64,000 nucleotides of DNA from Oceanicaulis sp. (GCA_965229795.1 CBDDJM010000001.1:958630-1022629), one strand, 5' to 3'; shown: positions 8,117-38,144, counted from the first letter of the stretch. Notes: a model not told the origin generated them from the sequence alone. Translations and numbers: made by a program.

Positions 8117-8704
8117 ATGCAGGTCATTGTTGGACTGGGCAATCCCGGGTCGAAATACGCTGGCAACCGCCATAACGCCGGCTTCATGGCCATGGATGCC
8201 ATCGCTGAGCATTGGCGCTTTGGCCCATGGAAGAAGCGCTTTCAGGGCCAGACTGCTGAAGGGGTCATCGAGACCTTGAGCGGTCCGAAGAAGACGCTCC
8301 TGATCAAGCCTGAGACGTTTTACAATGAAAGCGGTCGCTCGGTCGGCGAAGCCTTGCGCTTCTTCAAGCTGGATGCCGCTGCGCTGACCGTCTTCCATGA
8401 CGAGCTGGACCTGGCACCGGGCAAGTTTCGTCTCAAGACCGGCGGTGGCCATGCGGGTAATAACGGTCTGCGCTCCATCAAGGCCCATGTGGAGGGCGAC
8501 TTCCAGCGCGGCCGGATTGGCATCGGCCACCCTGGCGACAAGAATCGCGTCACCGGCTACGTGCTGTCCGATTTCCCAAAGGCTGATCAGGTCTGGCTCA
8601 CCGACCTGCTGGACGCTATCGCGCGCTCGGCTGACCTTCTGGTCAACGCCGAGATCGACGCCTTCCAGACCAAAGTCACGCATCTCGCCCCGGCACCGGG
8701 CTAG
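8117..8704 (+). CDS. pth: peptidyl-tRNA hydrolase
   Basis: 195-aa ORF with N-terminal VGLGNPGSKYAGNRHNAGF and GHAGNNGLRSI motifs. Confidence 0.92.
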   Translation: MQVIVGLGNPGSKYAGNRHNAGFMAMDAIAEHWRFGPWKKRFQGQTAEGVIETLSGPKKTLLIKPETFYNESGRSVGEALRFFKLDAAALTVFHDELDLAPGKFRLKTGGGHAGNNGLRSIKAHVEGDFQRGRIGIGHPGDKNRVTGYVLSDFPKADQVWLTDLLDAIARSADLLVNAEIDAFQTKVTHLAPAPG

Positions 8705-8813
8705 CGCCCTCTCTTTTTCTATCCTCCCCCGGATCAAGTCCGGGGTGCAGGCGGCGGTTCGCCTTGCGAGCCCGAAGGGCTCGGGTCACTATCGCTACGT
8801 GTTATTTTCTTAA

Positions 8814-8924
8814 ATATCTGAATTCCCGGACGAGCGAAGCGATGATCCGGGACCTGTGTGAGACCGTGGTGCCTGACCGCGATGGAGGCCCCGGCTCTGC
8901 GGCTACGCCTTGGCCGGGGTTTCA
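8814..8924 (+). repeat. MITE/REP-like palindromic element, family 1, copy a
   Basis: Contains the hairpin TCCCGGACGAGCGAAGCGATGATCCGGGA and the second module GGAGGCCCCGG...CTTGGCCGGGGTTTCA. It aligns by eye along its length with 17381-17502 and, inverted, with 15939-16037. Confidence 0.7.
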
Positions 8925-8943
8925 AGCTTGAAGCTATTCACTC

Positions 8944-8976
8944 AAAAAACCGCCCCCTCCGGTCCGGAGGGGGCGG
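8944..8976 (-). terminator. rho-independent terminator after the metalloprotease gene
   Basis: Perfect 11-bp stem CCGCCCCCTCC/GGAGGGGGCGG. The A-run at 8944-8949 gives a T-run on the minus strand, 30 nt downstream of the stop at 9005. Confidence 0.75.
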
Positions 8977-9004
8977 CTCTTTAAAGCTCAGCGTTCGCTG
9001 AAGT

Positions 9005-15033: not shown

Positions 15034-15927
15034 GTGAACTACCGTCACGCCTTTCACGCTGGAAACTTTGCCGATGTGCTCAAGCATGTCGTGCTGGCGC
15101 TGTGCTTTGAGCATCTTAAAGCCAAGCCCAAGCCATTTCGTTATATCGACACCCATTCCGGCATTGGTCAGTACGACCTGACCAGTGATGAGGCCCGGCG
15201 CAGCCCGGAATTTGAGGACGGGATCACGCGCGTCCTCGCTGCCGACAAGCCCGACGATGTGGCAGCGGTCCTGAAACCCTTCCTCGACGCAGTTGCGGCC
15301 AGTAATTCTGGCGAGGCGCTGACCGCTTACCCGGGAAGCCCGCAGGTCGCAGCAAGCCTGCTTCGCGATACCGACCGCATCCAGCTGTGCGAACTCCACC
15401 CGGCCGACGCCAAGACCCTCGACCAGCGCTACGCGAAAGATCGCCGGGTGAAGGTGGAGGCGCGCGACGGCTACAAGGCGCTCAGCGCCATTGTGCCGCC
15501 GGTGGAAAAGCGCGGCCTGGTCCTGATCGACCCGCCCTTTGAACATCGCGATGAGATGGCCTTCATGGCCGAAGCCGCGATGAATGGCATCAATCGCTGG
15601 CCCATCGGCACCTTCATCTTCTGGCGTCCGCTTAAAGACCTGTGGGCTCAGGAGCGCTTTGATGTGGGCCTGACTGAATGGCTGATTGCCGAAAAGCAGA
15701 TCGAGCCTGAAAAAATCCTGCGCGCCGATTTGTGGGTGCGCGAGCTGGAAAGCGAAGGCAAGCTGGCCGGGGCCGGCGTTGTCGTCGTCAATCCGCCCTA
15801 CACGCTGGAAGACAATCTGGTCACCCTTCTGCCCTGGCTATGTGAGGTCCTGAAGCAGGACGACGGCGCAGGCTGGCGTGTCGACGGCGTCATCGCCGAA
15901 GACAGCCTGCTGGTGGATGAGTTTTAA
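15034..15927 (+). CDS. rlmJ: 23S rRNA (adenine2030-N6)-methyltransferase RlmJ
   Basis: N-terminal MNYRHAFHAGNFADVLKH and the later YPGSP and LIDPPFE motifs are typical of RlmJ. Confidence 0.85.
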   Translation: MNYRHAFHAGNFADVLKHVVLALCFEHLKAKPKPFRYIDTHSGIGQYDLTSDEARRSPEFEDGITRVLAADKPDDVAAVLKPFLDAVAASNSGEALTAYPGSPQVAASLLRDTDRIQLCELHPADAKTLDQRYAKDRRVKVEARDGYKALSAIVPPVEKRGLVLIDPPFEHRDEMAFMAEAAMNGINRWPIGTFIFWRPLKDLWAQERFDVGLTEWLIAEKQIEPEKILRADLWVRELESEGKLAGAGVVVVNPPYTLEDNLVTLLPWLCEVLKQDDGAGWRVDGVIAEDSLLVDEF

Positions 15928-15938
15928 AGCTTGAGGAC

Positions 15939-16037
15939 TTGAACCCCCGTCGCATGACGGGGCCTCTATCAGAATTGAGCACCAGGGTCACAATGAGGTC
16001 CCGGATCATCGCTACGCTCGTCCGGGATTTCATATTT
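15939..16037 (-). repeat. MITE/REP-like palindromic element, family 1, copy c (inverted, shorter)
   Basis: The reverse complement reads AAATATGAAATCCCGGACGAGCGTAGCGATGATCCGGGACCT...GAGGCCCCGTCATGCGACGGGGGTTCAAG, matching copies a and b. It sits in the convergent gap between rlmJ and the MFS gene. Confidence 0.65.
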
Positions 16038-16059
16038 AGGGCCTTACTGCGCGCTGGCC

Positions 16060-17301
16060 CTAATCCTCGTCAGGAACCACCTCGCCCACGCCAAACAGCT
16101 TTCCGCGTTCGGTCCAGGCCACAACCGCCAGCGACAACGCACCAAGGATCGCGAAGCCGGCAATCAGCGGCACCACGGTGCCGTCATAGGTCTGGCCGAT
16201 GATGGAGCCGAGCGTCGCGCCGGACATGGACGTGACGCCGCCATAAAGCGCAGCGGCCGTGCCCGCACGTTCTCCGGCCGGCTCCATGACCAGCGCGGAG
16301 AAATTCGCGCCCATCCAGGCAAACATCAAAAGCGAGGCGGTCAACAGGCTGAAATAGATCCCAAAGGGTGGCTGGCCCATCAGGGCAATCGCCAGGTGGA
16401 CAATATTCAGCCCCAGAAACACCACCACGGCCGTGTGGGATATACGCCGCATCCCCAGCCGCCGCACAATGCGCGCGTTGAGAATATTCGCCGCCGCAAG
16501 CCCGACCGCGACGCCGCCAAACGCCAACGCAAAGTATTCCTCCAGCCCATAGAGCTCGGCCAGGACCTGCTCGGAGGTCGCAATGAAGGCGAACAGCGCC
16601 CCGAAGATCAGACCCGCCGCCACGATATAGCCGGCCGAAACACGTTCGGTCAGGACGAGGCGATAGTTTTTAATCGCCGACGGAATCGACAGCGCGATGC
16701 GATGCTCAGCGCGCAGGGTTTCTGGCAGGCGGACAAACATCCACACGCCAAGCCCCACAGCCATGACGAAGAGGAAGGCGAAGATCGCCTGCCACGGGCC
16801 GATAAACAGGATGCCCTGCCCGATACTGGGGGCGAGGATCGGCGCGACCATGAACACCGTCATGGCAAAGCTCATGATCTCCGCCATGCGCCGCCCGCTG
16901 ACGAGATCGCGCACGACCGCAACCGCCACCACCCGAGTGGCCGCTGCGGCCACGCCCTGCAGGGCCCGGGCCGCGATCATCCAGACGATGTCCTGTGACA
17001 TCAGGCACAACACCGTCGCGGCAAGATACCCCGCCAGCGCAAACAGCAGCGTCAGCCGACGCCCCAGCGCATCCGCCAGCGGGCCAAACCCGAGCTGCGC
17101 CAGGCCAAAGCCGAAGACGTAAGCGGTGATCACCAGCTGGCGGTTATTGCCCGGCGCACCCAGATCGCCGCCTATCTCGCCCAGCGCAGGCAGCAGGATG
17201 TCGATCGACAAGGCATTGAGCGCCATCAGCCCGCCCACCATGGCGATCAGCTCTACCGTCGTCAGCGAGGGACGACGCGGATCAGGCGATGAAATGCGCA
17301 A
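16060..17301 (-). CDS. MFS transporter, Bcr/CflA-type drug efflux
   Basis: 413-aa ORF with about 12 TM segments. Motif GPLADALGRR lies between TM2 and TM3. The N-terminal layout resembles Bcr/CflA family members. Confidence 0.8.
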   Translation of the reverse strand: MRISSPDPRRPSLTTVELIAMVGGLMALNALSIDILLPALGEIGGDLGAPGNNRQLVITAYVFGFGLAQLGFGPLADALGRRLTLLFALAGYLAATVLCLMSQDIVWMIAARALQGVAAAATRVVAVAVVRDLVSGRRMAEIMSFAMTVFMVAPILAPSIGQGILFIGPWQAIFAFLFVMAVGLGVWMFVRLPETLRAEHRIALSIPSAIKNYRLVLTERVSAGYIVAAGLIFGALFAFIATSEQVLAELYGLEEYFALAFGGVAVGLAAANILNARIVRRLGMRRISHTAVVVFLGLNIVHLAIALMGQPPFGIYFSLLTASLLMFAWMGANFSALVMEPAGERAGTAAALYGGVTSMSGATLGSIIGQTYDGTVVPLIAGFAILGALSLAVVAWTERGKLFGVGEVVPDED

Positions 17302-17380
17302 GGAAGCTCTCCGGCAAACACGGCGCGCAAGCTATGTCGCTGACAGGGCTACGTCGAGCGGCGAGCTGCTTATGTCCAAA

Positions 17381-17502
17381 ATCCTGAAATCCCGGACGAG
17401 CGTAGCGACGATCCGGGACCTGGCACAGAACAATGCTCCATAGCCGCATGGAGGCCCCGGTTCAGCGCCCCGGAACAAATCCGGGGCTTGGCCGGGGTTT
17501 CA
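17381..17502 (+). repeat. MITE/REP-like palindromic element, family 1, copy b
   Basis: ATCCTGAAATCCCGGACGAGCGTAGCGACGATCCGGGACCTG...CATGGAGGCCCCGG...CCCCGGAACAAATCCGGGG CTTGGCCGGGGTTTCA. It is colinear with copy a and carries one extra hairpin module. Confidence 0.7.
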
Positions 17503-17509
17503 TGGGCTT

Positions 17510-18379
17510 CTAATATTCCGGCTCGTCGTCCCACGGCCAGCCCGGTGGGTAGTCGCCGGGGACCTGGCCCGGGAAATTCGGCGGGCGTTTTTCAAGAAAG
17601 CTCGTCACGCCTTCAACCGCATCGGCGCTGATCCCGCGATGCAGGATGGCGCGGCTTTCAAGGCGGTGGGCGTCCATGGGATGGGGCGCACCCAGCATGC
17701 GCCAGACGAGGCGGCGGTTCATGGCGACCGAAACTGCCGCGGTGTTGGCGGTCAGTGCCCTCGCTTTCTCCATGGCGCGCTCCAGCACTGCTTTGGGCGT
17801 ATCGGCGAGCTCTGAGACGAGCTTTTTCTCCAGCGCCTCTTCAGCCATGAAGGTGCGGCCCGACAGGCCCCAGTCGAGCGCGGTTTCAATACCCACAAGG
17901 CGAGGCAGGAACCAGCTCGCCGCCCCGTCCCAGGCGATGCCGCGCTTGGTGAACGGCATCGCGAATTTCGCCCCGGCCAGCGCCACGCGCGCATCCATGG
18001 GCAGGATCACCGTCGCCCCGATGCCCACCGCCGCGCCATTAATAGCGGCCACGACCGGCTTTTCGCTGTCAAAAACGCGCAGATTCATCAGCCCGCCGGT
18101 GTCGCGCCATTTGGGGTCGGTATCGTCAAACGCGCCCGAGCCTTGCGCTTCCTGCAGCATGGCAAAGGCCTCAGCGCCCGCCGACAGGTCGGCGCCGGCG
18201 CAGAACGCCTTGCCGGCACCCGTCACGACGACCGAGCGAACCGACGGGTCGGCATCGGTTTCATCAAAACAGGCGGCCACCTCCTGACCCATCTGGGGCG
18301 TGAAGGTATTCATGGCGTTGGGCCGGTTCAGCGTGATCAGGCCAAGGCCGTCAGAAATGTCGAGCTTTACAGTGTCCAA
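17510..18379 (-). CDS. enoyl-CoA hydratase/isomerase (crotonase) family protein
   Basis: 289-aa ORF with the crotonase-fold pattern ITLNRPNAMNTF...VVVTGAGKAFCAGADL...KPVVAAINGAAVGIGAT. Confidence 0.85.
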   Translation of the reverse strand: MDTVKLDISDGLGLITLNRPNAMNTFTPQMGQEVAACFDETDADPSVRSVVVTGAGKAFCAGADLSAGAEAFAMLQEAQGSGAFDDTDPKWRDTGGLMNLRVFDSEKPVVAAINGAAVGIGATVILPMDARVALAGAKFAMPFTKRGIAWDGAASWFLPRLVGIETALDWGLSGRTFMAEEALEKKLVSELADTPKAVLERAMEKARALTANTAAVSVAMNRRLVWRMLGAPHPMDAHRLESRAILHRGISADAVEGVTSFLEKRPPNFPGQVPGDYPPGWPWDDEPEY

Positions 18380-18518: not shown

Positions 18519-19154
18519 TTACTTGTTCGGCTGAGGCGTGGTGCGCAGGTAAGGCTTGATCTTGTTGTAGCCTTTCGGGAACAGCTTGTCGGCGTCTTCG
18601 TCGGACACGCTCGGCACGATGATGCAATCTTCACCGTCTTCCCAGTTCACCGGCGTGGCGACTTTATAGCCGTCAGTCAGCTGTAGGGAGTCCAGCAGGC
18701 GCAGGACTTCGTTGAAGTTCCGGCCAGCGCTCGGCGGATAGGTGAAGGTGGCGCGGATCTTCTTGTTCGGGTCGATGATGTAGACCGAGCGCACGGTGAC
18801 CTTCGGGTCGGCGTTCGGGTGGATCATCGTGTAGAGCTCAGCCACCTTGCGGTCGACGTCGGCGATGATCGGGAAATTCATCTTCACGCCCTGGGTCTCT
18901 TCAATATCGCCAACCCAGGCCTTGTGGTCTTCCACCGGATCCACTGACAGGGCGATGGCTTTCGCGCCGCGCTTGGCAAACTCGTCCTTCAGCTTGGCGG
19001 TGTAGCCAAGCTCGGTGGTGCACACCGGGGTAAAGTCGGCCGGGTGGGAGAAGAAGATCACCCAGCTATCGCCGATCCAGTCATGGAATTTGATCGGGCC
19101 ATCTGTGGTTTCGACTTCGAAATCTGGGGCGACATCGCCGAGCAGAAGGGACAT
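18519..19154 (-). CDS. 1-Cys peroxiredoxin (Prx6-like)
   Basis: The ORF track gives 18519-19226. The internal start MSLLLGDVAPDFEV gives 19154. Active site FSHPADFTPVCTTELG. Length is about 211 aa. Confidence 0.88.
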   Translation of the reverse strand: MSLLLGDVAPDFEVETTDGPIKFHDWIGDSWVIFFSHPADFTPVCTTELGYTAKLKDEFAKRGAKAIALSVDPVEDHKAWVGDIEETQGVKMNFPIIADVDRKVAELYTMIHPNADPKVTVRSVYIIDPNKKIRATFTYPPSAGRNFNEVLRLLDSLQLTDGYKVATPVNWEDGEDCIIVPSVSDEDADKLFPKGYNKIKPYLRTTPQPNK

Positions 19155-19286
19155 TTTGAACTCCGTTGTTTTCGGCCTATTTGCCGAGGGGGTCGAACGC
19201 GCGTTTACTTGGGACCCAGACCGCACGGGTGCAACCCCCTCGCGGCGAAGCTAACGCAAGTGTGACGAAATCTGGAGCCGCCGCCC

Positions 19287-22156: not shown

Positions 22157-24610
<2,454 letters not shown>

Positions 24611-24671: not shown

Positions 24672-24731
24672 GGCTAACGCCAAAATAACCAATTGATAGA
24701 ATTTGTCGCAGGCTTCGCATAAAAGTTGCGC

Positions 24732-24836
24732 CCCTGTCCGACCCTGCCTAGGCTTTGATCCAAATGCGTCTCTAGATCGTTCGTCCGCTCCGGATGTCAG
24801 CTCTTCTGATGCTTAAGATATTGATCAGGGACAGGG
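24732..24836. repeat. inverted-repeat element, possible degenerate family-2 MITE copy, abutting the ORF1 start
   Basis: CCCTGTCC at 24732-24739 and GGACAGGG at 24829-24836 form an 8-bp perfect inverted repeat 89 nt apart. The termini have the same core (CCTGTCC) as the elements at 33492-33614 and 62390-62507. Internal similarity is weak. Confidence 0.4.
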
Positions 24837-24842
24837 TTTTAT

Positions 24843-25535
24843 ATGTCGAACATTGCGGGGAAGGCGTATGCGATGAATGTCGTGACGCCGAGCAACCGGA
24901 AGATCAGCTGGATCAACCGGACCATATTCATGTTTTTCCGCTGTCTACCCACTGCCCTCCAGGGCCTGCTGGGGTTGCAGCTGATCCACTTTGCACGCTG
25001 GGTCTTTATCAAGCCGGACCAATGGCCGGACCTGGGTCAGGGCAAACAGACTGTGCAGAATGACTATGTGCTGTTCTGCTCCAACTTTAACGGCACCTGG
25101 GACCAGTATATCGACGCCTTCTCCGATGGCATTCCATTGGGGCTGGACCTGTTTTGGTATTCCTCGATCAAATACCCCCGGTCGATCCCCATCACGCCCT
25201 TCAAAAACTACATTACTTTCAACCAGATAAATACTGATTACTACTATAATGCGACCCCGGGCTCGGCCCAGCGCGACATCAAGACCAGCCTGTCCATCTA
25301 TAATCAGGTGGAAAAGCTGACCGAGCTGCACCGCACAGCTACGCCCGATGAGTTCGCAGCCGCCTACGCCAAGGTCGCCAGCCTGATCCAGAACGGTTTG
25401 GGCGATCCCGGCTTTGGTCCGGTGGCCAGCCTTGATACCGAACGGGCCCAGGTCAATCGCTATGCCTATGCCGAGCACAATCACGGCCATGCCTCTTCAC
25501 CCGCCACCGATGCCGCCACACCGAAGGGGGCCTGA
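24843..25535 (+). CDS. uncharacterized protein (operon ORF1, 230 aa)
   Basis: This is the longest ORF in the region, and its stop lies 3 nt before the ORF2 start. Motifs: LIHFARWVFI (48-57), DYVLFCSNFNGTWDQYIDAF (74-93), TDYYYNA (131-137). No family recognised. An alternative start is the ATG at 24873. Confidence 0.7.
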   Translation: MSNIAGKAYAMNVVTPSNRKISWINRTIFMFFRCLPTALQGLLGLQLIHFARWVFIKPDQWPDLGQGKQTVQNDYVLFCSNFNGTWDQYIDAFSDGIPLGLDLFWYSSIKYPRSIPITPFKNYITFNQINTDYYYNATPGSAQRDIKTSLSIYNQVEKLTELHRTATPDEFAAAYAKVASLIQNGLGDPGFGPVASLDTERAQVNRYAYAEHNHGHASSPATDAATPKGA

Positions 25536-25538
25536 ACC

Positions 25539-26603
25539 ATGCCGGATTTTGATAACGGACATATCTTCCTGACCACGCTGGCCCCCATCAAGCCGGGCGC
25601 ACCAGCTGATGACCCCCAGGTTTCCCATGGCCAGCGGATCCGCACGGGTCTGTCGCTGATGCCGGTTGCACGCCAGTCACCCGCCACCGCGAACGCGCAC
25701 GCGATCAGCCCCTTTGCCCGCAACACGCGCAACCATCTGGCGCGCATGTTTGTGCTCAATGACACGGTCTATAATGGCCGCAATACGATGAACCCGCTCG
25801 CGGCCATCTTTCGCAGCATCCCTGTCATTCGAAACTTCTTTGGCGGCGGCGTACCGGCCAACGTCCTGAAGCCGCAGAAGATGGACCATCTGAACGCGTC
25901 CTATCTGGTGTTCTGCGCCGATATCGATGCGATCACGGACGATGGCGATCCGCTTCCCGCCAGCCTGAATGCGGACCAGCAGCGCGAGGTGCGCCATTCC
26001 TATGCGCGCAAGCTGTGGGAGACGATGAGCGAGGAGCTAACGGCGCTCTACTCCAATTGCTACGGGTTTGAAGGCGTTGATTCAGCTGAGAAGTTTGCCG
26101 CCTATCTGGATCGCTGCCACGTGGAAACGACCATGCCGTTCCACGATTATTACTTCCAGAATCCGGGCTTCAAGAACTCCAGGTTGATGATCGCGCTGGG
26201 CGCGGTGACGGCCCTGACCTTCGCCGCAGCGATTGTGGGCTTCGCGCTGCACATGTTTGGCCTTGCGACTATCCCCTTCATTAGCTGGCCCACCAATCTG
26301 TTCTGGCCTGGCGCGACCCTGCTCGGTCTTGTGCTGGGTTTCATCACCGTGAAATTCATCAATTCACGCGGTCAGAAGCCCTTCCCGCTGGGCAGGTTTG
26401 ATGATCTGCCGTCGGTGCTCAAAGCGATCTACATCCAGCAGAAGCTGGCCGATTTCTACATCGACAATCAGGGTGCCGATCCTGACGCGCTGCATGCCGC
26501 CTTTGGCAAATTCATCGCCGAGCACGACCCACAGAACACGCATTCGAAAACGCAGAAGCCGGGCGTTATTTCCTTGGCCGATCCGCAAAACGTAACCCCC
26601 TAA
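25539..26603 (+). CDS. uncharacterized membrane protein (operon ORF2, 354 aa)
   Basis: The soluble N-terminal roughly 210 aa carry NHLARMFVL (65-73), SYLVFCADID (121-130) and HDYYFQN (202-208), colinear with the ORF1 motifs. Two predicted TM helices (about 216-241 and 256-274) and a 75-aa tail follow. Confidence 0.7.
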   Translation: MPDFDNGHIFLTTLAPIKPGAPADDPQVSHGQRIRTGLSLMPVARQSPATANAHAISPFARNTRNHLARMFVLNDTVYNGRNTMNPLAAIFRSIPVIRNFFGGGVPANVLKPQKMDHLNASYLVFCADIDAITDDGDPLPASLNADQQREVRHSYARKLWETMSEELTALYSNCYGFEGVDSAEKFAAYLDRCHVETTMPFHDYYFQNPGFKNSRLMIALGAVTALTFAAAIVGFALHMFGLATIPFISWPTNLFWPGATLLGLVLGFITVKFINSRGQKPFPLGRFDDLPSVLKAIYIQQKLADFYIDNQGADPDALHAAFGKFIAEHDPQNTHSKTQKPGVISLADPQNVTP

Positions 26604-26620
26604 AGAGTTGAGCCAAATCC

Positions 26621-28327
26621 ATGACACGTGAGCTGAATCTCAACGATATTCAGGGCAATATCACCCGCGCCTACGGTCGCTATTCCTTCCCGTTTGCGCG
26701 CTATTATTTCTTCCACTTCCCCGACCCGGCCTGCGGTCGAAAATTCATCGACAAGGTGCGTGAAAAGGTCACCACCGCCGCGCGCTGGCCGACCATGCAG
26801 GACAAACCCGACTGCACGACCAATTGCGCGTTCACCTTCCCGGGCCTGCTGGCACTGCAGCTGTCGATCCGGGCGCTCAAGGAGATGCCGTTCGAGTTTA
26901 TTGAAGGCATGAAGGCGCGCGCCTTCATCCTGGGTGACCGCGACCAGACCCAGACTGAAGCCGAGGCCTTTAAAGCCAACTGGAACGATCACTGGGATCC
27001 GATCTGGAAGCATAATCGGGAACTTGGCTCCGACGGCTCCAACGACGTGCACATGCTGGTCACGCTCAACGCCCAGATCAAGCCGGGCACCACCGACCAG
27101 CCGCACCCGGCGCTGGAAGAGCGCGCCGACTGGCTCATCAAACAGGCCGAAGCCTGTGGCGTACGTGTCATGGATGGCGTGGGTCCGGACGGCAAAGACA
27201 CCTACCAGTCCGCCTCGGCGGTGTTTGACAAGGTGGGCGCGCTCACCCTGCCCACCGCAAAGGAGCATTTCGGCTTTACCGACGGCATCGGTGACCCGGT
27301 GTTTGAAGGCCAGTTTGAACCCGAAGACGAAGCCAGGAATGTCATTGGCCGCGGCAAGCTGATGGGCAATGGCTGGGAGCCTCTGGCCACCGGGGAGTTT
27401 CTGCTAGGCCATCCCGACGAAAGCCAGGAACTGCCCCCAGCGGCCAAACCTCCGGAATTCATGCACAATTCCAGCTTCTTCGCGTTTCGCAAGCTGCACG
27501 AGAATGTCGCCAGCTTTGATGAGGTCGTCGATACCGAGGCTGAAAAATTCGCCAAGGTCATGAATGTCGACATCGAAGAGGCGCGCGAGACCATTCGGGC
27601 AAAGATGTGCGGGCGCTGGTCAGATGGCGTGCCGCTGATGAAATACCCGACCTACGATGAGTGGCAGGCCTTTCGCAAAGCCAGTGGCTTTATCCCGGAC
27701 ATTCAGCCCGATGATACGCCGGAGGAAAAGCAGAAGAAGGCGCTTGATGCCTATGGCAGGCACATCGCCTATATCCGCTCGCCAGAGGCGCGGGACTTCA
27801 GATATGCCGATGACATGCAGGGCTATAAATGCCCGCTCGGGTCGCATATGCGCCGGGTCAACACGCGCGATTATCTTGATCCGCTCAACGATGTCGGGAC
27901 AGACCCCAAGACCGGCAAGCCAGCAGAAAACCCCAACGCCACCAGCACGCTGAACAAGCGTCGCCGCATCCTGCGCCGGGGCCTGCCCTACGGTCCGTCC
28001 AACCTGGAGCACAAGGACGATGACACCGAACAGGGCGTCATCATGATGATCATGGGCGCAAACCTGTTCAGGCAGTTCGAGTTCGTCCAGCAGCAGTGGA
28101 TCCAGTACGGCCTCGATTTCCATCAGGGCAACAACACCTGTCCGATGCTGGGCGATCACAGCCACCACAAGCGGCACACGATTGAGTCAGACCCCGCGTC
28201 CGGCAAACCGCCCTACGTGATGAGCACGCTGAAAACCTTCGTGGAGTGCCGTGGCGGTGACTATTTCTTCGCGCCGTCGATGACGGGTCTTCGCATGCTC
28301 GCCATGGGTACAATTGACCCGACCTAA
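26621..28327 (+). CDS. DyP-type (dye-decolorizing) haem peroxidase, large form
   Basis: 568-aa ORF with N-terminal LNDIQGNITRAY, GFTDGIGDP (GXXDG), the proximal-His region CPLGSHMRRVNTRD, RRGLPYG, FEFVQQQW and C-terminal CRGGDYFFAPS. No twin-arginine signal is present. Confidence 0.88.
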   Translation: MTRELNLNDIQGNITRAYGRYSFPFARYYFFHFPDPACGRKFIDKVREKVTTAARWPTMQDKPDCTTNCAFTFPGLLALQLSIRALKEMPFEFIEGMKARAFILGDRDQTQTEAEAFKANWNDHWDPIWKHNRELGSDGSNDVHMLVTLNAQIKPGTTDQPHPALEERADWLIKQAEACGVRVMDGVGPDGKDTYQSASAVFDKVGALTLPTAKEHFGFTDGIGDPVFEGQFEPEDEARNVIGRGKLMGNGWEPLATGEFLLGHPDESQELPPAAKPPEFMHNSSFFAFRKLHENVASFDEVVDTEAEKFAKVMNVDIEEARETIRAKMCGRWSDGVPLMKYPTYDEWQAFRKASGFIPDIQPDDTPEEKQKKALDAYGRHIAYIRSPEARDFRYADDMQGYKCPLGSHMRRVNTRDYLDPLNDVGTDPKTGKPAENPNATSTLNKRRRILRRGLPYGPSNLEHKDDDTEQGVIMMIMGANLFRQFEFVQQQWIQYGLDFHQGNNTCPMLGDHSHHKRHTIESDPASGKPPYVMSTLKTFVECRGGDYFFAPSMTGLRMLAMGTIDPT

Positions 28328-28345
28328 CGCCAAAGGCGCACCGAT

Positions 28346-29689
28346 ATGTTTACGAAATTTGCCAATATTTTCATCTCGCTCTTCACCCTGCTGAGGGTCA
28401 TCGTGGCGGGACTGGTCTCGCTGCTTCACCTGATTGTGATGGGCGCTGTGTCGCTGGTCTCCGGCGGGATTGGGCCGTTCCTGCTCAAACCCGCAACCCA
28501 GCAGAAGGTCTTCAACGTGTTGCGCGCCTTCTGGCCGAACATAGCGTTGAACACCGTGATCATTAAGTCCTATGAGAATACCGGCACGGTCATTGTCACA
28601 CGCCGCGAGGACGTTCTGGACGTGCTCAGCCGCGATGCGGACTTTGAGGTCGTCTACGGCAGCCGCATGAAGAAGCTGACCAATGGCGACAACTTCTTCC
28701 TCGGCATGCAGCCGGGCTGGGACTACCAGCGCGATGTCTCGGCCATGCGGCTTGCGGCGCGGATTGATGATGTGCCCAACATTGTTCTTCCCAACGCCCA
28801 AACGCGCTCCGCCGAGATTGTCAAAGCCGCCGATGGCAAGATCGACATGGTTCAGGACCTGACCTTGCAGATCCCGTGGGAAATGACGTCCACCTATTTC
28901 GGGGCCGGCGGTGAACGCGACGCCATGGCCGAGTGGACCACCAATCTGTTCTGGTATCTGTTCGCCGATCTGGGCGCTGATGAACAGCTGGATGATATCG
29001 CGATGAGCGATGCCGCCGCTCTGCGCAGCTATCTTGATGACCAAATCGCCGCGCGCAAAGCCAAGCCGACCCAGGGCGACGGTGTTCTCAACCGCTGTCT
29101 TGCGCTTCAAAAGGCCGACACCCCGGGCATGAGTGACCTGGGCATCCGCAACAATCTGCTGGGTCTGCTGATCGGGGCTATCCCGACTATTTCCAAGGCC
29201 AGCTGTTTTGCCATTGATGAGTTGCTGAACCGCCCGGAGCAACTGGCCGGTGCCCAGGCCGCGGCGCGCGAAGGCAAGGACGATCTGATGGCGAACTTTG
29301 TGTGGGAGGCGCTGCGCTTTAACCCGTTCAGTCCGCTGCTCTATCGCCGCGCCACACGCGACGCGACCATCGCGCCATCTACCTTGCGCCGGGTTCGGGT
29401 CAAGAAAGGCCAGATGGTTTTTGCCACAACCGCGGCGGCCTGTTTCGACCCCTATGATTTGGATGCCCCCGGTGCCTTTAAAACTGACCGCCCGTGGGAA
29501 ACCTATATCCCGTGGGGCTATGGCATGCACAAATGCTTTGGCAGCGCGATCAACAAGGCGGTCATTCCGGCGATTTTGAAGCCTGTCCTGATCCAGAAAA
29601 ATCTGCGCCGTGCGCCCGGTGACGCCGGCCAGATCAATAACGGCACGTCCGCCTTCCCTCAGCATTTCCATCTGGAATGGGATGCGTGA
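28346..29689 (+). CDS. cytochrome P450 with N-terminal membrane anchor
   Basis: 447-aa ORF with ExxR (EALRFNP) and the Cys-ligand loop WGYGMHKCFGSAIN. The first roughly 45 residues are hydrophobic (FISLFTLLRVIVAGLVSLLHLIVMGAVSLV). Confidence 0.88.
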   Translation: MFTKFANIFISLFTLLRVIVAGLVSLLHLIVMGAVSLVSGGIGPFLLKPATQQKVFNVLRAFWPNIALNTVIIKSYENTGTVIVTRREDVLDVLSRDADFEVVYGSRMKKLTNGDNFFLGMQPGWDYQRDVSAMRLAARIDDVPNIVLPNAQTRSAEIVKAADGKIDMVQDLTLQIPWEMTSTYFGAGGERDAMAEWTTNLFWYLFADLGADEQLDDIAMSDAAALRSYLDDQIAARKAKPTQGDGVLNRCLALQKADTPGMSDLGIRNNLLGLLIGAIPTISKASCFAIDELLNRPEQLAGAQAAAREGKDDLMANFVWEALRFNPFSPLLYRRATRDATIAPSTLRRVRVKKGQMVFATTAAACFDPYDLDAPGAFKTDRPWETYIPWGYGMHKCFGSAINKAVIPAILKPVLIQKNLRRAPGDAGQINNGTSAFPQHFHLEWDA

Positions 29690-29730: not shown

Positions 29731-29804
29731 TGGAGCGGGTAGCGAGAATCGAACTCGCACGTTCAGCTTGGGAAGCTGACAGGCTACCATTACATCATAC
29801 CCGC
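29731..29804 (-). tRNA. tRNA-Gly (anticodon CCC)
   Basis: The reverse complement is GCGGGTATGATGTAATGGTAGCCTGTCAGCTTCCCAAGCTGAACGTGCGAGTTCGATTCTCGCTACCCGCTCCA. Acceptor stem GCGGGTA/TACCCGC, anticodon stem TCAGC/GCTGA with loop TTCCCAA, T-arm GCGAG-TTCGATT-CTCGC, and an encoded CCA. The D-stem pairs imperfectly in my reading. Confidence 0.85.
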
Positions 29805-29997
29805 GCGCACTCACGTGCTGAGCCGGTTATCGGTCGAAGTGCGTTTGAGCGCAAGCCTCGGATGCGAAGACACCAGAGGCACCAGCACACTGCACAATCC
29901 AGCGCGGTTGCAGCATCAAGAAGCGCTCAACCTCTATGAAAGAATTTAACACGCCATAGATTGCAAGCCGTGACAATTCAGCTTACCAAAATTGTCC

Positions 29998-31878
29998 ATG
30001 GCTTCGAATTCTTTCATCTCGCTTCTCAACCGGATCAACGGCCTTGAAAACACCAAAGCGGTGGCCGAGGCTCAGGCTATGTTCACCGCCAAACTTCACG
30101 GCGTCGTGCGTGAAGGCGGTTTGAGCCTGGAGCGCGAACTTCATGACTGGTTCGGTGAGGCCCGCTTCAACGAATTGCTGGACGGGGCAGCCCCCAGCCT
30201 GGAAGAAGCCACCACGCTGACCCAGCTCATCAGCCAGCATGAAATGATCCTGGCTAGTGAGCGCCGCTCTGACTTTGAGCCCATTGCCGAGCCATCCAAA
30301 ACGTCGACAGATGCAACCCAAGCCCTGCCATTGCGCCTTTCGCCGAGCCAAATCGTAGCTTCCATCGCTGGGATCATCACCGCTGGATCGCTGGGCCTTG
30401 CCATCACCAGCATGAATGCCGCCGATGAATGGCAGGACGACGCCGCCCGTGCCGAGGCCTTCTCAGCGCGCCTGGTGATGATGCTGGCTCGGGAACTTCC
30501 GCATGACGCGCCTACGCCGGTCATTGAAAATGTGGCGAGCGACGCCATTGAGTATTTCGAGGCCCATGGCGAGTTTGCCGACCCCAGCACTCTAAGTGAC
30601 TGGTCGCGCATCTTTACGATTGTTGGGCGTCAGCGCTGGAATTCCGGCAATACGGCAGGGGCCCGTCAAGCCTTTGAAACGTCGGTTGCAGCCACGCTGA
30701 AGCAACTGGATGCCTCGCCCAACAGCCTCGATGCGCTGTTTGATCACTCCCAGGCCGTATTCTGGTTAGCAGATTTCAATTTTCGGAACGCGGACTTTGA
30801 TGCTGCTGAAGCCGGTTTTAATACATATGCGACTTTAACAACTGAATTGTACGAAACGAACCCACAAAGCCCACTCTACCAGGCTGAATACGCTTATGGC
30901 TTTTTAAATCGTGCCATTATCGACTGGGAGCGAGGGCGCATAGAAGACGCGCTCGGCGGATTCACCGCCGCGCTGAACGATCTTTCTGATGTTGCGGAAA
31001 ATTCAGATGTTGTCAGTGCACTGGATATCGCAAACGCAAGGGCATGGCGCGCGAGCGCGCTATTTACGTCCGGGCAGTTTGGTGAGGCCAGCGCTGAGCG
31101 TGGCCGTGAACTCGCCATTTATGAAAGCGTAGAAGATTCTGCGTATGTCGAGCATCGCCGCTTGGCTGCCATGTCTCAAAGAGCGGCGGCACGTCTTGCG
31201 CTTGGCGACTTGGCAGGTGCCATCCCGCTTATCGAAGATGGTTCGGAGCTTGCTGGTCAAAATCTTAGTCAGCAGCCCGGCAACATAGAAGCGCTGCGCC
31301 GATATCTCAGCTTCATGCTTCAACGGGTTGAAGTGGCACTGGCTGAAGATCGCCTGATTGCTGCCAAGCTGATAGTTGACCACGCACGCTCCGCGCTCGC
31401 GACATATCTGGACGGCGCGGATCGGATTGTTCCTGCACGTGAGACGGCCCAGTTTTCAGTCGCTGCAGCTGAGGTCGCGATTGCATCAGGCGCGTATGAA
31501 ACCGCAAGCGAGGAAGCCGCTTCTGCAATTCGAGTACTTGGAGCCGAAAATGCCAACGAAATCCGGAGCCTGGTTCTGCATGCTTTTGCCTACCAACTGG
31601 CAGGTGAGGCAGAAGAGGCGGCCGGAAATGACGATGTAGCTCGGCGCTACTACCTTCAAGGGATTGACCTATTGCGCACCGAACCTGGAACCATTGAAGA
31701 GAATATCGTCAAAGCACGCTTGAATATCTTGCTGGGCAATGTTGCAGAAGCAAATAGCTTGCGCGATGAAATTGCAGTGTCAGGTTACTCGCATCCCCGC
31801 GATATCGCCTTCTGGCGGAGAATCAATCAATCTGGTGTCGTCCAAACTGACACCGGAGAAAATTTAAATGGCGGGTAA
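29998..31878 (+). CDS. single-pass membrane protein with long TPR-like helical-repeat C-terminal domain
   Basis: The ORF track gives 29992 (TTG); the first ATG is at 29998. An N-terminal roughly 115 aa precede one TM (IVASIAGIITAGSLGLAITS) and about 490 aa of alanine-rich helical repeats. Composition is visibly AT-richer than the flanks. No named family recognised. Confidence 0.7.
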   Translation: MASNSFISLLNRINGLENTKAVAEAQAMFTAKLHGVVREGGLSLERELHDWFGEARFNELLDGAAPSLEEATTLTQLISQHEMILASERRSDFEPIAEPSKTSTDATQALPLRLSPSQIVASIAGIITAGSLGLAITSMNAADEWQDDAARAEAFSARLVMMLARELPHDAPTPVIENVASDAIEYFEAHGEFADPSTLSDWSRIFTIVGRQRWNSGNTAGARQAFETSVAATLKQLDASPNSLDALFDHSQAVFWLADFNFRNADFDAAEAGFNTYATLTTELYETNPQSPLYQAEYAYGFLNRAIIDWERGRIEDALGGFTAALNDLSDVAENSDVVSALDIANARAWRASALFTSGQFGEASAERGRELAIYESVEDSAYVEHRRLAAMSQRAAARLALGDLAGAIPLIEDGSELAGQNLSQQPGNIEALRRYLSFMLQRVEVALAEDRLIAAKLIVDHARSALATYLDGADRIVPARETAQFSVAAAEVAIASGAYETASEEAASAIRVLGAENANEIRSLVLHAFAYQLAGEAEEAAGNDDVARRYYLQGIDLLRTEPGTIEENIVKARLNILLGNVAEANSLRDEIAVSGYSHPRDIAFWRRINQSGVVQTDTGENLNGG

Positions 31879-32317
31879 TGCACTTACCGAACTCGGCCTG
31901 ACAGGCCGCGATATCAGACATATTCCACTTTTGGTGTTTCCAAAGCCAAAGCTTGAAGGCGGCGCGTGGGTCGACACAGTTGGGATCGCCTTTGTTCATG
32001 GAACTGGCGAACTGCACACATCCCATCCTGTGGATTACATTTTTTACCTCGTTGATCAGAACGGAAATGTTCCCACCAACGTCGAATTCGTTGACATCGA
32101 ACTCGGTGGCAGTTCCTGGCCCGGCATATATGTCTACCCGGCTCATGGGGTTAGCGTACAATATGGCGAAAGCCGCAAAGTCGTGGTCATGAAAAACGAG
32201 CTGACCCAGGACTGGTACCGACACCCATTCTCCATCGCCATCCGCAATACGGATACCGGCGAGCTCTACAAGCTTGATCCGGGCTCAGACAATGACGGCA
32301 CTCCTGGCCTCCCCTAA
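31868..32317 (+). CDS. small beta-rich hypothetical protein (149 aa)
   Basis: The start overlaps the preceding stop by 11 nt. No signal peptide or TM. No family recognised with confidence. Confidence 0.6.
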   Translation: MAGNALTELGLTGRDIRHIPLLVFPKPKLEGGAWVDTVGIAFVHGTGELHTSHPVDYIFYLVDQNGNVPTNVEFVDIELGGSSWPGIYVYPAHGVSVQYGESRKVVVMKNELTQDWYRHPFSIAIRNTDTGELYKLDPGSDNDGTPGLP

Positions 32318-32474: not shown

Positions 32475-33431
32475 ATGCCTGACGCCGCCGCACCACAAAA
32501 CATTGAAACTGAAAAGTTTTCAGACCTTGATGTCACCGCCAAGGGTGAGGCGCGCGCGCATGTGGCCTTCGACCAGCTCAAGACGCTGTGGTTCAATACC
32601 GGCACGCTGTGCAATATCGAATGCGCCAATTGCTATATTGAAAGCTCGCCGACCAATGACCGCCTCGTCTACCTGACCGAGGCCGATGTCGCGCCCTATC
32701 TTGATGAGATTGACGCCATGGGCACCGGCCCGGTGGAGATCGGCTTTACCGGCGGCGAGCCCTTCATGAACCCCGACATGGTGCGCCTGACCGAGATGGC
32801 ACTGGAGCGCGGTCACGAAGTCCTGATCCTGACCAACGCCATGAAGCCCATGATGCGCCCCTGGGTGCAGCAGGGCTTGCGGGATCTAAACCAGCGCTAT
32901 GGATCAAAACTGACCCTGCGCATCAGCCTGGATCACTACACCGCCCAGAACCATGACGCAGAGCGCGGCAAGGGCGGCTTTGCCTCCACGCTGGAGGGGA
33001 TGCGCTGGCTGATCGAGCACGGCTTCACGCTGTCTGCAGCCGGGCGCGCGCTCTGGCATGAAAGTGAGGCTGTCGCGCGCGCTAGATTCCAGGGCCTGTT
33101 TGATGAACTCGGTGCCGATATTCCGGCTGATGACCCAGCCCGCCTCGTGATCTTTCCAGAGATGGAAGAGGACGGCGATCCGCCTGAAATCACGACCGCC
33201 TGCTGGGATATTCTGGGCATTGATCCCAGCACGGTCATGTGCGCCTCCAGCCGCATGGTGGTGAAGCGCAAGGGGGCATCAAAGCCAGCCGTGCTGTCGT
33301 GCACCCTCCTGCCCTACGACGAAGCGTTCGAGCTTGCCGATACGCTCGAAGCCAGCCTCACACCGGTGAAACTCAAGCATAAATTCTGTGCGCAATTCTG
33401 CGTGCTGGGCGGAGCGAGCTGTTCGGCCTAG
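32475..33431 (+). CDS. radical SAM protein with Cys-rich C-terminus (ArsS/TIGR04167-like pattern)
   Basis: CNIECANCY gives the CxxxCxxC cluster motif and GFTGGEPF the SAM-binding motif. The C-terminus HKFCAQFCVLGGASCSA resembles the Cys-rich tail of the radical SAM/Cys-rich domain family. The subfamily assignment is tentative. Confidence 0.75.
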   Translation: MPDAAAPQNIETEKFSDLDVTAKGEARAHVAFDQLKTLWFNTGTLCNIECANCYIESSPTNDRLVYLTEADVAPYLDEIDAMGTGPVEIGFTGGEPFMNPDMVRLTEMALERGHEVLILTNAMKPMMRPWVQQGLRDLNQRYGSKLTLRISLDHYTAQNHDAERGKGGFASTLEGMRWLIEHGFTLSAAGRALWHESEAVARARFQGLFDELGADIPADDPARLVIFPEMEEDGDPPEITTACWDILGIDPSTVMCASSRMVVKRKGASKPAVLSCTLLPYDEAFELADTLEASLTPVKLKHKFCAQFCVLGGASCSA

Positions 33432-36685: not shown

Positions 36686-37218
36686 AGCCGCAGCTGCTCG
36701 GTGATGAAGCGGGATTTGGCCGCGCGATACTCATCCATGGGCAAACCATCAAAGCGCTGTTTGAGATCATTGTAGGCGGCAAGCAGGACCGGATTGTCGA
36801 TCAGCATGCGCCGGTAGGTTTCAAACACATCATGCCTTGAGCCCTTCACCACTAGCTGAACACCCACCGGACAGGCAAAGCCCTCCGCCTGATAGGCCGC
36901 AAAGCGCTCATTGCGGAGCGATTTCAGGTTCTGGGTGTGGGTCTGATCCAGGCTCTCGCGGGCTGAAGCAAAGACCTGTTCGGGCACGCGCACCGCGATA
37001 TCGAGATCGCCCTTGGTCAGGGCACCGGGCACTGAGGTCGCGCCGACATGATCGCACTGGGCCGCAACGGGCAGCGTATTGCCAAAGCGCTCCAGCCAGA
37101 TTTCGAACGCATCGGCGGCCCGGCGATGGGCCACTTCTGTGTTGGCCAGCCGAAAGCGCTCTTCGATCAATCGTTTGCCTTGCCGGCCACGTCGATTTCT
37201 GCCGCGGAGAATTTCCAT
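36682..37218 (-). CDS. GrpB-family protein
   Basis: HVGATSVPGALTKGDLDIAV and the C-terminal LIDNPVLLAAYNDLK...YRAAKSRFI match the GrpB pattern. The annotated start overlaps the hslO 3' end by 52 nt, so the true start may be further downstream. Confidence 0.65.
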   Translation of the reverse strand: MEILRGRNRRGRQGKRLIEERFRLANTEVAHRRAADAFEIWLERFGNTLPVAAQCDHVGATSVPGALTKGDLDIAVRVPEQVFASARESLDQTHTQNLKSLRNERFAAYQAEGFACPVGVQLVVKGSRHDVFETYRRMLIDNPVLLAAYNDLKQRFDGLPMDEYRAAKSRFITEQLRL

Positions 37219-38144
37219 TCCTTGTTGCAGTATTCGCAGGTCATGGCGACGGTTCCGTCTTCACGGGCCATGTGGGCGCGGTCGTCTGAGGGAAAGCGTG
37301 CCAGCAGCTTGGCGAGCCGGTCATGCTCACACGCACAGCGGCGCACGATCGGCGTTTCGGTTTCAACACGCACGCCCTCTTCATGGAAGAGACGGAAGAG
37401 CACGCGGCCCGAGGTCAGACCGGGATCGAGCAGCTCGTCATCGCCAACGGTATCAAACAGGGCGCGCGCGTGATCGAAATCACCATCGGTATCCCCGCGC
37501 GTCTCATCACCAGCGATGCGCTGGATCAGCATGCCCCCGGCGCGCCAGATCTGGCGACCGCCATCGACCACCTGACGGCCCACAGCGAGCTTTAGACGCG
37601 TCGGCACCTGTTCTGACTGGCTGAAATAATGCTCGGCGCTATGGGCCAGGCTTTCGCCCGTCACCTCGGTCACACCCTGATAGCGCTCCATTCCGGCCCC
37701 GGGATCAATGGTCATGGCGAAGTTCCCGCCACCGAGCAGGCGGTCAGCGCCCACCGGCCCGCCTTCGACCTTTTCCAGCATTTTGACCCGGTCGGCGTCG
37801 TATTTGGCATAGCCGCGCACGCCTTCACCGGGCACAAAATCGGCCACGACAAAAGCCACCGCGCCTTCACCCTCGACATTGCGGCCCTGAGCGGCCGGGC
37901 CACTGGCCTGGACAATCAGCTTGCCCTCGATCTTCAGGCTATCGCCGACCAGTGCGGCAATCATCGCCGCTTCGCCGACAAGCCGCGCGACACTTTCGGG
38001 GTAGTCATGCGACCCCAGGATGGCGTCCGCGACCGCGCCCAAGCGCACAATTCGCCCACGTACCGGCCGCCCCTCCAACTGGAAGATGGAGATGGTGTCG
38101 TCGGTTGCGCCCAGCGTGTCTGGTATTTGAGTTGCGTCACTCAT
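37167..38144 (-). CDS. hslO: Hsp33-family redox-regulated chaperone
   Basis: 325-aa ORF with the C-terminal zinc centre CACEHD...CEYCNKEW (CxC...CxxC) and Hsp33-like N-terminal domain motifs. Confidence 0.88.
   Translation of the reverse strand: MSDATQIPDTLGATDDTISIFQLEGRPVRGRIVRLGAVADAILGSHDYPESVARLVGEAAMIAALVGDSLKIEGKLIVQASGPAAQGRNVEGEGAVAFVVADFVPGEGVRGYAKYDADRVKMLEKVEGGPVGADRLLGGGNFAMTIDPGAGMERYQGVTEVTGESLAHSAEHYFSQSEQVPTRLKLAVGRQVVDGGRQIWRAGGMLIQRIAGDETRGDTDGDFDHARALFDTVGDDELLDPGLTSGRVLFRLFHEEGVRVETETPIVRRCACEHDRLAKLLARFPSDDRAHMAREDGTVAMTCEYCNKEWKFSAAEIDVAGKAND

Follow-up and report, generated by a model that had tools for sequence, protein, structure and literature searches.

What do two proteins of no named family, a dye-decolorizing peroxidase (DyP), and a cytochrome P450 do together in one bacterial gene cluster? 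The question is raised by four open reading frames (ORFs) in a 64,000-nucleotide (nt) stretch of an Oceanicaulis sp. genome (GCA_965229795.1, CBDDJM010000001.1:958630-1022629; the whole of this stretch is referred to as the window), which lie on one strand between a catalase-peroxidase gene, katG, and a tRNA gene. A first-pass annotation, made from the sequence alone, had read them as a self-contained module of two haem enzymes. We find it very likely that the four genes belong to one co-functional unit, in which an invariant core of the two unnamed proteins (ORF1 and ORF2, called subunits A and B throughout) and the DyP is joined by dedicated accessories, namely the P450 and, elsewhere, a glutathione S-transferase (GST)-like protein. 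The module comprises the following features.

24843-25535, plus strand: ORF1, subunit A, 230 amino acids (aa)
25539-26603, plus strand: ORF2, subunit B, 354 aa
26169-26372, plus strand: two-helix membrane hairpin in B (residues ~211-278), from AlphaFold2 (AF2) and hydropathy
26621-28327, plus strand: ORF3, class-V (C/D-type) DyP haem peroxidase, 568 aa
28346-29689, plus strand: ORF4, cytochrome P450, 447 aa

The gaps between the four ORFs are 3, 17, and 18 nt, and there are Shine-Dalgarno-like purine-rich stretches at the ORF junctions. The first-pass annotation was accurate as to coordinates, gaps, the terminator after katG, and the tRNA gene 41 nt past the last stop, and every motif that it quoted (DIQGN, GFTDGIGDP, GSHMRRVNTRD, RRGLPYG, RGGDYFFAPS, EALR, and WGYGMHKCFG) is present in the translations. 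Its statement that the unit contains no ferredoxin, reductase, regulator, transporter, or encapsulin gene is also borne out.

When one genome from each GTDB species is pattern-scanned, a close A homologue is found in 539 species, and the best 80 loci were examined; these are mostly from Rhodobacterales, together with Nisaea, Roseibium, Beijerinckiaceae, and several gammaproteobacterial metagenome-assembled genomes. B follows A in all 80, and a DyP gene follows B in 79, the exception being a 1.9-kb contig that ends after B, so that the order A-B-DyP is seen in 79 of 79 judgeable loci. In all, 79 other species share the gene order, with protein identities of 37-81%. An orthologous P450 gene stands directly after the DyP gene in 51 of the 75 loci with enough flanking sequence and is absent from the other 24, and a GST-like gene (PF13410) stands directly after the P450 gene in 33 loci, is never present without the P450, and is missing from this window; searches for the class of the GST-like protein give only weak generic GST matches. 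The proposed four-gene module is thus co-conserved elsewhere in the same order, with the corrections that only A-B-DyP forms the core, that the P450 is a frequent accessory, and that the GST-like protein is a fifth member.

No other conserved neighbours of the module are present in the 80 loci. The upstream regions of 78 loci are heterogeneous, with no common operator motif identified and LysR genes in 7 loci only. Four loci (L002, L003, L006, and L045) share a palindrome, GTTG-N9-CAAC (e.g., GGTTGAAATTTCTACAAC), ~90-110 nt upstream of the A start, which may be the operator of this sub-group; other sub-groups share different upstream blocks, none of which is recognised in the window. We also note that one P450-less locus (L064) has a different P450 gene (35% identical; 8532-9836, plus strand) immediately upstream of A, and that in a different locus (L022) a mini-catalase-like gene (15886-16647, plus strand) comes after the GST-like gene. 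Accessory genes are thus shuffled even inside the proteobacterial clade.

ORF1 and ORF2 have no match in Pfam, NCBIfam, PADLOC, or the PDB sequences, and their homologues are publicly annotated as 'hypothetical protein'. An exhaustive hidden Markov model (HMM) search with an ORF1 profile returns 1218 clusters at 50% identity, and many of these matches are ~400-aa proteins in which both halves match. ORF1 matches the first domain of these tandem proteins, and an HMM built from the second halves of 24 of them matches ORF2 at 81.5 bits (E 4.6e-25) and ORF1 at 79 bits. Because this second-half HMM recognises both proteins, A and B are identified as paralogues that match the first and second domains of the tandem protein, respectively. 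ORF2 aligns to the second-domain HMM in three collinear pieces (residues 11-82, 111-204, and 291-327), and in P0241 the A and B proteins, hairpin included, are directly fused. The relationship is reached only by bridging via the tandem proteins from the exhaustive representative search, and direct hhalign comparison of the shallow ORF1 and ORF2 alignments shows no similarity. The earlier view of two proteins without a named family therefore stands, except that they are not two unrelated unknowns and are instead halves of one tandem protein.

We propose that A/B is an undescribed domain family of ~180-230 aa, marked by the motifs (F)IHFARW, LF.SNFNG.W..YIDAF, and YY..AYP, and occurring as an adjacent A-then-B pair or as a tandem fusion. 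Profile searches with 22 diverse family members find no counterpart in the PDB, and likewise none in Pfam, NCBIfam, or PADLOC; with the Foldseek searches described below, neither protein falls into a well-characterized family. No account of the A/B family, the A-B-DyP operon, or natural DyP-P450 fusions turned up in the literature that was searched in full text. Conservation within the module is highest for A, with ~70% identity across genera, ~80 invariant positions, and 63-81% identity over 79 other species. A and B most likely form a heterodimer, given that they are paralogous halves of what is elsewhere a single two-domain protein.

The AF2 model of ORF2 (predicted local distance difference test [pLDDT] 77.6) has a beta-alpha-beta-beta-alpha order of elements that is compatible with a ferredoxin-like half-barrel. 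The hairpin helices are modelled at residues 211-239 and 252-278 with pLDDT >90, and hydropathy peaks span residues 214-274. Situated between the HMM-aligned segments, the hairpin is an insertion inside the B domain, and it is missing from the soluble ~180-210-aa B proteins of distant modules. Just before it, residues 193-205 (26115-26153) read C-H-V-E-T-T-M-P-F-H-D-Y-Y; across 36 proteobacterial B proteins its Cys, two His, Glu, and Asp never vary, an invariance that does not extend to soluble or fused forms, and this segment may be a lineage-specific metal or haem site. A-like domains are also present at the C terminus of nSTAND1 NTPases (P0295, 719 aa, which has no PADLOC match, and P0332, 350 aa), the usual position of a sensor domain, which hints that the A domain could act as a ligand-binding module. 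The idea that A and B are cryptic DyP-like domains was considered and set aside; hhalign against a 72-sequence DyP alignment shows no similarity, and at the fold level the idea is neither supported nor excluded.

ORF3 was correctly called a DyP, and its homology and motifs identify it as a divergent yet clear member of class V (C/D). Its best PDB match by phmmer is 8re3 (E 8.5e-28), followed by 7anv, 4au9, 5c2i, and 4g2c, and the top matches comprise DrDyP (class C), an ancestral D-type enzyme, fungal D-type enzymes, AnaPX, and DyP2, with classes assigned according to PMC10820274. The structures 8RE2 and 8RE3 are of Deinococcus radiodurans DrDyP (DR_A0145), a class C/V enzyme with six-coordinate low-spin haem (PMC10820274). 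The distal GXXDG motif with its catalytic Asp is present (EHFGFTDGIGDP) and aligns to the same motif of 8re3, the proximal-His segment GSHMRRVNTRD aligns to GSHIRRMNPRD, and the distal-Arg segment RRGLPYG aligns to RRATAYG. EHFGFtDG is kept in 72 ORF3 orthologues, as are the GXXDG Asp, the proximal His, the distal Arg, and the C-terminal RGGdYFF. ORF3 scores under the curated cut-offs of PF21105 (21.8 versus 27.5) and TIGR01413 (71.4 versus 100.5), and this divergence of the clade means that DyP membership rests on PDB homology and motifs. There is no signal peptide or twin-arginine translocation (Tat) signal, and the N terminus begins straight with the DyP fold (MTRELNLNDIQGN), as expected of the cytoplasmic location that we predict.

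By the comparative evidence, A/B is an obligate partner of one clade of class-V DyP peroxidases. Among 72 plasmids with class-V-like DyPs, A is present only on pACIX901 of the acidobacterium Granulicella tundricola (L095), from which we conclude that the pair is specific to one DyP subclade. The RefSeq labels of the pACIX901 operon are hypothetical, hypothetical, and dyp-type peroxidase, and A-B-DyP lies 4 kb upstream of genes for a Fur-family regulator and katG. On this plasmid the regulator and katG (15379-18112) are followed by an alpha/beta hydrolase gene, and a TonB-dependent receptor gene directly follows the DyP gene.

Distant versions of the module show what else the core combines with. 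Searches from distant A-like proteins lead to four groups of loci with a DyP (as also in pACIX901). In L086/87 (GC 55%) a minus-strand GST-like gene stands beside genes for A (198 aa), B (207 aa, no hairpin), DyP (462 aa), and P450 (428 aa), the P450 being 43% identical to ORF4, with GAIPT kept and no N-terminal anchor; L083/84 (GC 41%) has the order mini-catalase, A, B, DyP; L088 has a mini-catalase gene and a 937-aa A-B-DyP fusion; and L090/91 has a tandem A-B gene overlapping by 4 nt an 885-aa DyP-P450 fusion. Three further loci were found from DyP fusions, with A and B verified directly upstream at >170 bits. L092 carries GMC oxidoreductase, alpha/beta-hydrolase-like, A, B, and DyP-catalase genes; in L093, patatin and alpha/beta-hydrolase genes lie beside A, B, DyP-alpha/beta-hydrolase, animal-type haem peroxidase (PF03098, E 1e-105), and mini-catalase-like genes; and L094 has LIP lipase, A, B, DyP-P450, and patatin genes, the stop and start codons of which overlap. 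Neither the B hairpin nor the P450 anchor is present in the distant soluble versions.

The 120 nearest relatives of the fused DyP include 13 DyP-P450, at least 17 DyP-catalase, 3 DyP-alpha/beta-hydrolase, and 4 A-B-DyP fusions. A-B is fused to DyP in P0290, P0311, P0470, P0471, P0481, and P0497, and to a mini-catalase in P0363, P0373, P0379, and P0383 (best PDB match 3e4w, E 1.1e-6), and the DyP-P450 fusions have no reductase domain. The parts of the module are thus linked by a dense Rosetta-stone fusion network. The D. radiodurans DyP gene likewise adjoins a gene for a catalase-like protein, DR_A0146, without catalase activity (PMC6300522).

ORF4 is a P450, as first described, with 47.1 bits to PF00067 (cut-off 22.8) together with EALR and WGYGMHKCFG; EALRFNP and WGYGxHxCFG are kept in 51 orthologues, and the Cys loop and EXXR are canonical. 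Its I-helix reads GAIPT, with Pro in place of the acid of the acid-alcohol pair and Thr retained. GAIPT(I/T)SK is invariant in the 51 orthologues, and GAIPT recurs in the distant L086 orthologue; the DyP-fused P450 has V-S at the acid-alcohol positions. A hydropathy peak at residues 2-48 (28349-28489) predicts an N-terminal hydrophobic anchor. The absence of a redox partner from the unit had led to the suggestion that the P450 could use the peroxide shunt, but this is no evidence, as bacterial P450s commonly use unlinked redox partners; that no ferredoxin or reductase is encoded among 20 further Pfam-scanned ORFs spanning ~7.3-42 kb of the window is weak evidence. The functional tie between the DyP and the P450 is supported through the reductase-free DyP-P450 fusions and a P450 that always lacks the I-helix acid. 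[quoted passage not shown] ORF4 has Pro-Thr there, and its acid-less I-helix is compatible with self-sufficient P450s without being diagnostic of them.

The module is bounded in this genome by the following features.

22205-24610, plus strand: katG (catalase-peroxidase), NF011635 1244.6 bits, TIGR00198 1126.2 bits
24633-24671, plus strand: intrinsic-terminator-like hairpin (14-bp stem with 10 G-C pairs, 4-nt loop) with a T7 run, TTTTTTT
24672-24842, plus strand: intergenic leader, presumed module promoter region
29731-29804, minus strand: tRNA-Gly(CCC), from ARAGORN, 41 nt past the P450 stop and the downstream module boundary here

By these comparisons katG is a neighbour outside the conserved module, and the hairpin is predicted to insulate the one from the other. 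A simple sigma-70 scan of the leader (24672-24842) finds no site. The katG ORF from the GTG at 22205 encodes 801 aa, of which roughly the first 70 lie outside the alignment to the family models; a start codon further downstream is therefore probable, in which case the intergenic region 5' of katG is longer than the ORF suggests. A 1-Cys peroxiredoxin gene (AhpC-TSA and 1-cysPrx_C; 18519-19226, minus strand) lies 5.6 kb upstream of the module and a gene for the redox-regulated chaperone Hsp33 (37167-38144, minus strand) lies 7.5 kb downstream, forming with katG a loose local cluster of oxidative-stress genes. Directly past the tRNA is a 628-aa ORF with a TTG start (29992-31878, plus strand) and no match in Pfam, NCBIfam, or PADLOC, followed by a 149-aa ORF (31868-32317, plus strand) with no match in Pfam, the sole library scanned for it, and a radical-SAM protein gene (32475-33431). 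Antisense ORFs of 494 aa (28187-29671, minus strand) and 222 aa (26600-27268, minus strand) overlie the P450 and DyP genes, respectively; equivalent shadow ORFs recur in orthologous loci, and the simplest explanation for them is conserved coding sequence combined with high GC content.

Protein identity is highest, at 96-98%, to the genome of 'Maricaulaceae bacterium EIL42A08'. Although the genome is labelled Maricaulaceae, the nearest homologues of the module are all from Rhodobacterales (A 78-81%, DyP ~70%, and P450 ~66%), and a Rhodobacterales-like module wedged between katG and a tRNA gene may have been horizontally acquired.

What the module does can be proposed in steps of decreasing certainty. 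Peroxide or hydroperoxide chemistry is the somewhat favoured expectation, because the recurrent partners all react with peroxides and the DyP-P450 fusions are reductase-free. A lipid-derived substrate is suggested by the lipases and animal-type peroxidase of the soluble versions and by membrane anchoring here, and we advance it tentatively, with rather less than even confidence. In the reading that we prefer, a DyP-centred, peroxide- or hydroperoxide-driven lipid transformation that is membrane-anchored in this lineage, the A-B heterodimer would bind the DyP, and the complex would sit at the cytoplasmic face of the inner membrane via the B hairpin with the P450 tethered alongside by its N-terminal anchor. 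The DyP would use H2O2 or an organic hydroperoxide on a hydrophobic, probably lipid-derived substrate, and the P450, working without a reductase, would convert either a hydroperoxide or the product of the DyP through shunt or rearrangement chemistry, with the GST-like protein, where present, processing the product. A and B might bind, generate, or isomerise a lipid or hydroperoxide intermediate beside the haem enzyme; substrate extraction and activation of the DyP are further candidate roles. The same kind of substrate could be reached in two ways, by anchoring to the membrane here and with lipases in the soluble, actinobacterial versions. Taken whole, this account is plausible, at a little under an even chance of being correct.

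Several observations weigh against it. The core does not need the P450, as shown by the 24 of 75 loci without one, and the lipid link is carried over from distant relatives, represented by three long actinobacterial-type contigs, whereas the 80 proteobacterial loci and the window encode neither lipases nor lipoxygenases nor animal-type peroxidases. The AF2 model of ORF1 is poor (pLDDT 53.5) with no significant Foldseek match to the PDB, and the best match of the ORF2 model to the PDB has E 0.73, a weak ABM/SchA-like match at probability 0.2. Across the broad A family few polar residues are invariant (K7, Y89, N81, N83, and D145), and no metal or cofactor motif is obvious; on both grounds a purely structural or regulatory role of A/B is possible. 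The PDB matches of ORF4 are ordinary class-I bacterial P450s, CYP105/107-like, and also NascB, NzeB, and CYP121. CYP152 peroxygenases bind the fatty-acid carboxylate with an I-helix Arg-Pro pair; ORF4 lacks this Arg (Ile-Pro-Thr), and CYP152 structures are outside its 60 best PDB matches. Nor does the lack of an I-helix acid mark a P450 as self-sufficient (PMC13049297).

General peroxide-stress defence is an unlikely explanation, with perhaps a fifth or slightly more of the probability, in which the DyP would detoxify H2O2 or organic peroxides, A and B would be maturation, haem-delivery, stabilising, or regulatory subunits, and the P450 and GST would be loosely associated detoxification enzymes. 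Such subunits would suit a pair that is found with unrelated haem enzymes (DyP and mini-catalase), as a haem-handling factor might be, and that has no obvious catalytic motif. On its own, DrDyP shows no activity at neutral pH; control by partner proteins is what its authors suggest (PMC10820274), and this counts for the preferred reading as well. A stress role also draws on the peroxiredoxin and Hsp33 genes in the window, and on katG, which also bears on the peroxide link of the preferred reading and is next door here, near the Granulicella module, and within 10 kb in 4 of the 80 loci, in differing arrangements (binomial P ~7e-4 at p=0.005). However, katG is immediately adjacent only in this genome (L001) and unlinked in 76 of the 80 loci, and no conserved stress regulator stands beside the module. 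A conserved katG linkage as a rule is rejected, the enrichment being modest, and the position of katG, which the first-pass annotation had seen as fitting a peroxide-linked role, loses most of its force. In addition, His49 of the HFARW motif is not invariant in the family, in which no conserved haem-ligand pattern was seen, and lipases, an animal-type peroxidase, and a dedicated P450 and GST subfamily within one operon look like a pathway rather than simple scavenging.

A conventional, O2- and NAD(P)H-dependent P450 served by a ferredoxin and reductase encoded elsewhere, sharing with the core only a substrate or pathway and neither oxidant nor complex, has about one chance in five. The closest solved relatives of ORF4 are ordinary class-I enzymes, the canonical Cys loop and EXXR and the I-helix Thr are kept, redox partners are commonly unlinked in bacteria, and 24 of 75 loci do without the P450. 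Set against these are reductase-free DyP-P450 fusions in at least 13 clusters and the replacement of the I-helix acid in every orthologue (by Pro, or by Val in the fused form). The P450 is also never found in loci without the core, and its subfamily persists at 43% identity in a distant soluble module.

Oxidation of aromatic, phenolic, or secondary metabolites is more doubtful still. Here the DyP would be a dye or phenol peroxidase acting on lignin- or algal-derived aromatics or in radical coupling, the P450 would carry out coupling or demethylation, and the GST would be of the etherase or isomerase type. Most of the known substrates of DyPs are aromatic (PMC10820274), the module is carried mainly by roseobacters, and a sulfotransferase gene stands beside a tandem A-B gene in L082. 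The best NCBIfam similarities of ORF4 are to P450s associated with coupling in cyclodipeptides and in ribosomally synthesized and post-translationally modified peptides (RiPPs), far under cut-off, in line with its PDB matches to NascB, NzeB, and CYP121. Yet the 80 loci show no conservation, near the module, of genes for aromatic catabolism, nonribosomal peptide synthetases (NRPS), polyketide synthases (PKS), cyclodipeptide synthases (CDPS), or precursor peptides, and the additional partners that recur in distant versions are lipases and haem enzymes of the hydroperoxide type instead of ring-cleavage enzymes. The components are, moreover, cytoplasmic or membrane-anchored and highly conserved (A at ~70% across genera), which is atypical of peripheral catabolism. 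Chance juxtaposition or an annotation artefact, with no operon, is effectively refuted by the synteny and fusion data: 79 other species and at least three further lineages at the level of phyla keep this order, with junctions that are tiny or overlap, and multiple fusions link the parts.

The finding is real and broader than the first-pass annotation could see, and what is new is the A/B family, together with its obligate pairing to one clade of DyPs. What DyPs act on and do physiologically has long been asked, and the module gives one large DyP clade defined obligate partners, two paralogues of an undescribed family, with a recurring toolkit of reductase-less P450, mini-catalase, GST, and lipases beside them. 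The family spans >1200 clusters at 50% identity, and the close clade alone is present in at least 539 bacterial species. A role for cytoplasmic DyPs in the transformation of membrane lipids or hydroperoxides becomes a testable hypothesis. The carriers include abundant marine roseobacters, for which oxidised lipids matter in algal-bacterial interactions and photo-oxidative stress, and the natural DyP-P450 and DyP-catalase fusions documented here are of interest for peroxide-driven biocatalysis. A bolder proposal, which we consider unlikely, is that A/B is a new lipid- or hydroperoxide-handling protein (e.g., a cofactor-independent oxygenase, or an isomerase/cyclase acting on an unstable intermediate derived from a peroxide) at the core of a widespread, hitherto unrecognised bacterial oxylipin-type pathway with a dedicated DyP clade. 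If so, P450, mini-catalase, GST, and lipase modules would plug into the A/B-DyP core, and the whole would be a prokaryotic DyP-based counterpart of eukaryotic cyclooxygenase/lipoxygenase-P450 cascades.

Several known systems invite comparison, beginning with the DyPs themselves. DrDyP (DR_A0145) has the solved structure nearest to ORF3 and is likewise class C/V, cytoplasmic, and encoded beside a catalase-like protein, DR_A0146, but it shares only ~30% identity with ORF3 and has 445 aa versus 568 aa. In DyP-encapsulin and EfeUOB systems, the DyP is encoded with obligate co-transcribed partners that localise or enable it, and the same is proposed here. The module differs from the former in having no shell gene in the unit, none conserved in the 80 loci, and no targeting peptide, and from the latter in having no Tat signal, no EfeU or EfeO homologue, no match of ORF3 to TIGR01412, and A and B as neighbours; unlike in either, the partners would be a cytoplasmic, membrane-anchored paralogous pair. 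ORF4 resembles the peroxide-using or self-sufficient P450s (CYP152 peroxygenases; CYP74, CYP5A, and CYP8A) in having no linked redox partner and a non-canonical I-helix acid-alcohol position. It differs from CYP152 in the absent I-helix Arg, with class-I bacterial P450s as its closest sequences, and from CYP74 in its Cys loop of canonical length.

The first-pass annotation had likened the module to fungal peroxidase/dioxygenase-P450 oxylipin synthases, and the comparison gains indirect support from the distant operons with patatin, LIP-type lipase, alpha/beta-hydrolase, animal-type haem peroxidase, and mini-catalases. As in the fungal dioxygenase-P450 fusions (Ppo; linoleate diol, epoxy-alcohol, and allene-oxide synthases; Oliw 2026, PMC13049297), the module pairs a peroxidase-type haem enzyme, at times as a fusion, with a reductase-less P450 whose I-helix lacks the usual proton-relay acid, and distant versions show a lipid context. 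The fungal enzymes differ in using a dioxygenase of the peroxidase-cyclooxygenase superfamily rather than a DyP of the CDE superfamily; here an animal-type haem peroxidase is encoded only by an additional gene of a single distant operon (L093). The module is also bacterial, has an obligatory A/B pair with no fungal counterpart, and has a core that exists without the P450. Overall, a peroxide or oxylipin interpretation is reasonable and partly supported, with its katG argument weak.

The mini-catalases fused to or beside A-B and this DyP clade recall the coral fusions of a catalase-related allene oxide synthase or hydroperoxide lyase to a lipoxygenase (PMC5617202), and the 33-kDa catalase-related peroxidase of Mycobacterium avium paratuberculosis (3E4W). 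Catalase-related haem proteins of the known systems act on organic or fatty-acid hydroperoxides supplied by a fused partner. In contrast, the partner here is the A/B family, with no lipoxygenase, and a mini-catalase is present in 1 of the 80 loci of the window's clade. The module belongs to neither group, and by analogy its logic is closest to that of the fungal dioxygenase-P450 fusions and the fusions of catalase-related allene oxide synthases with lipoxygenases.

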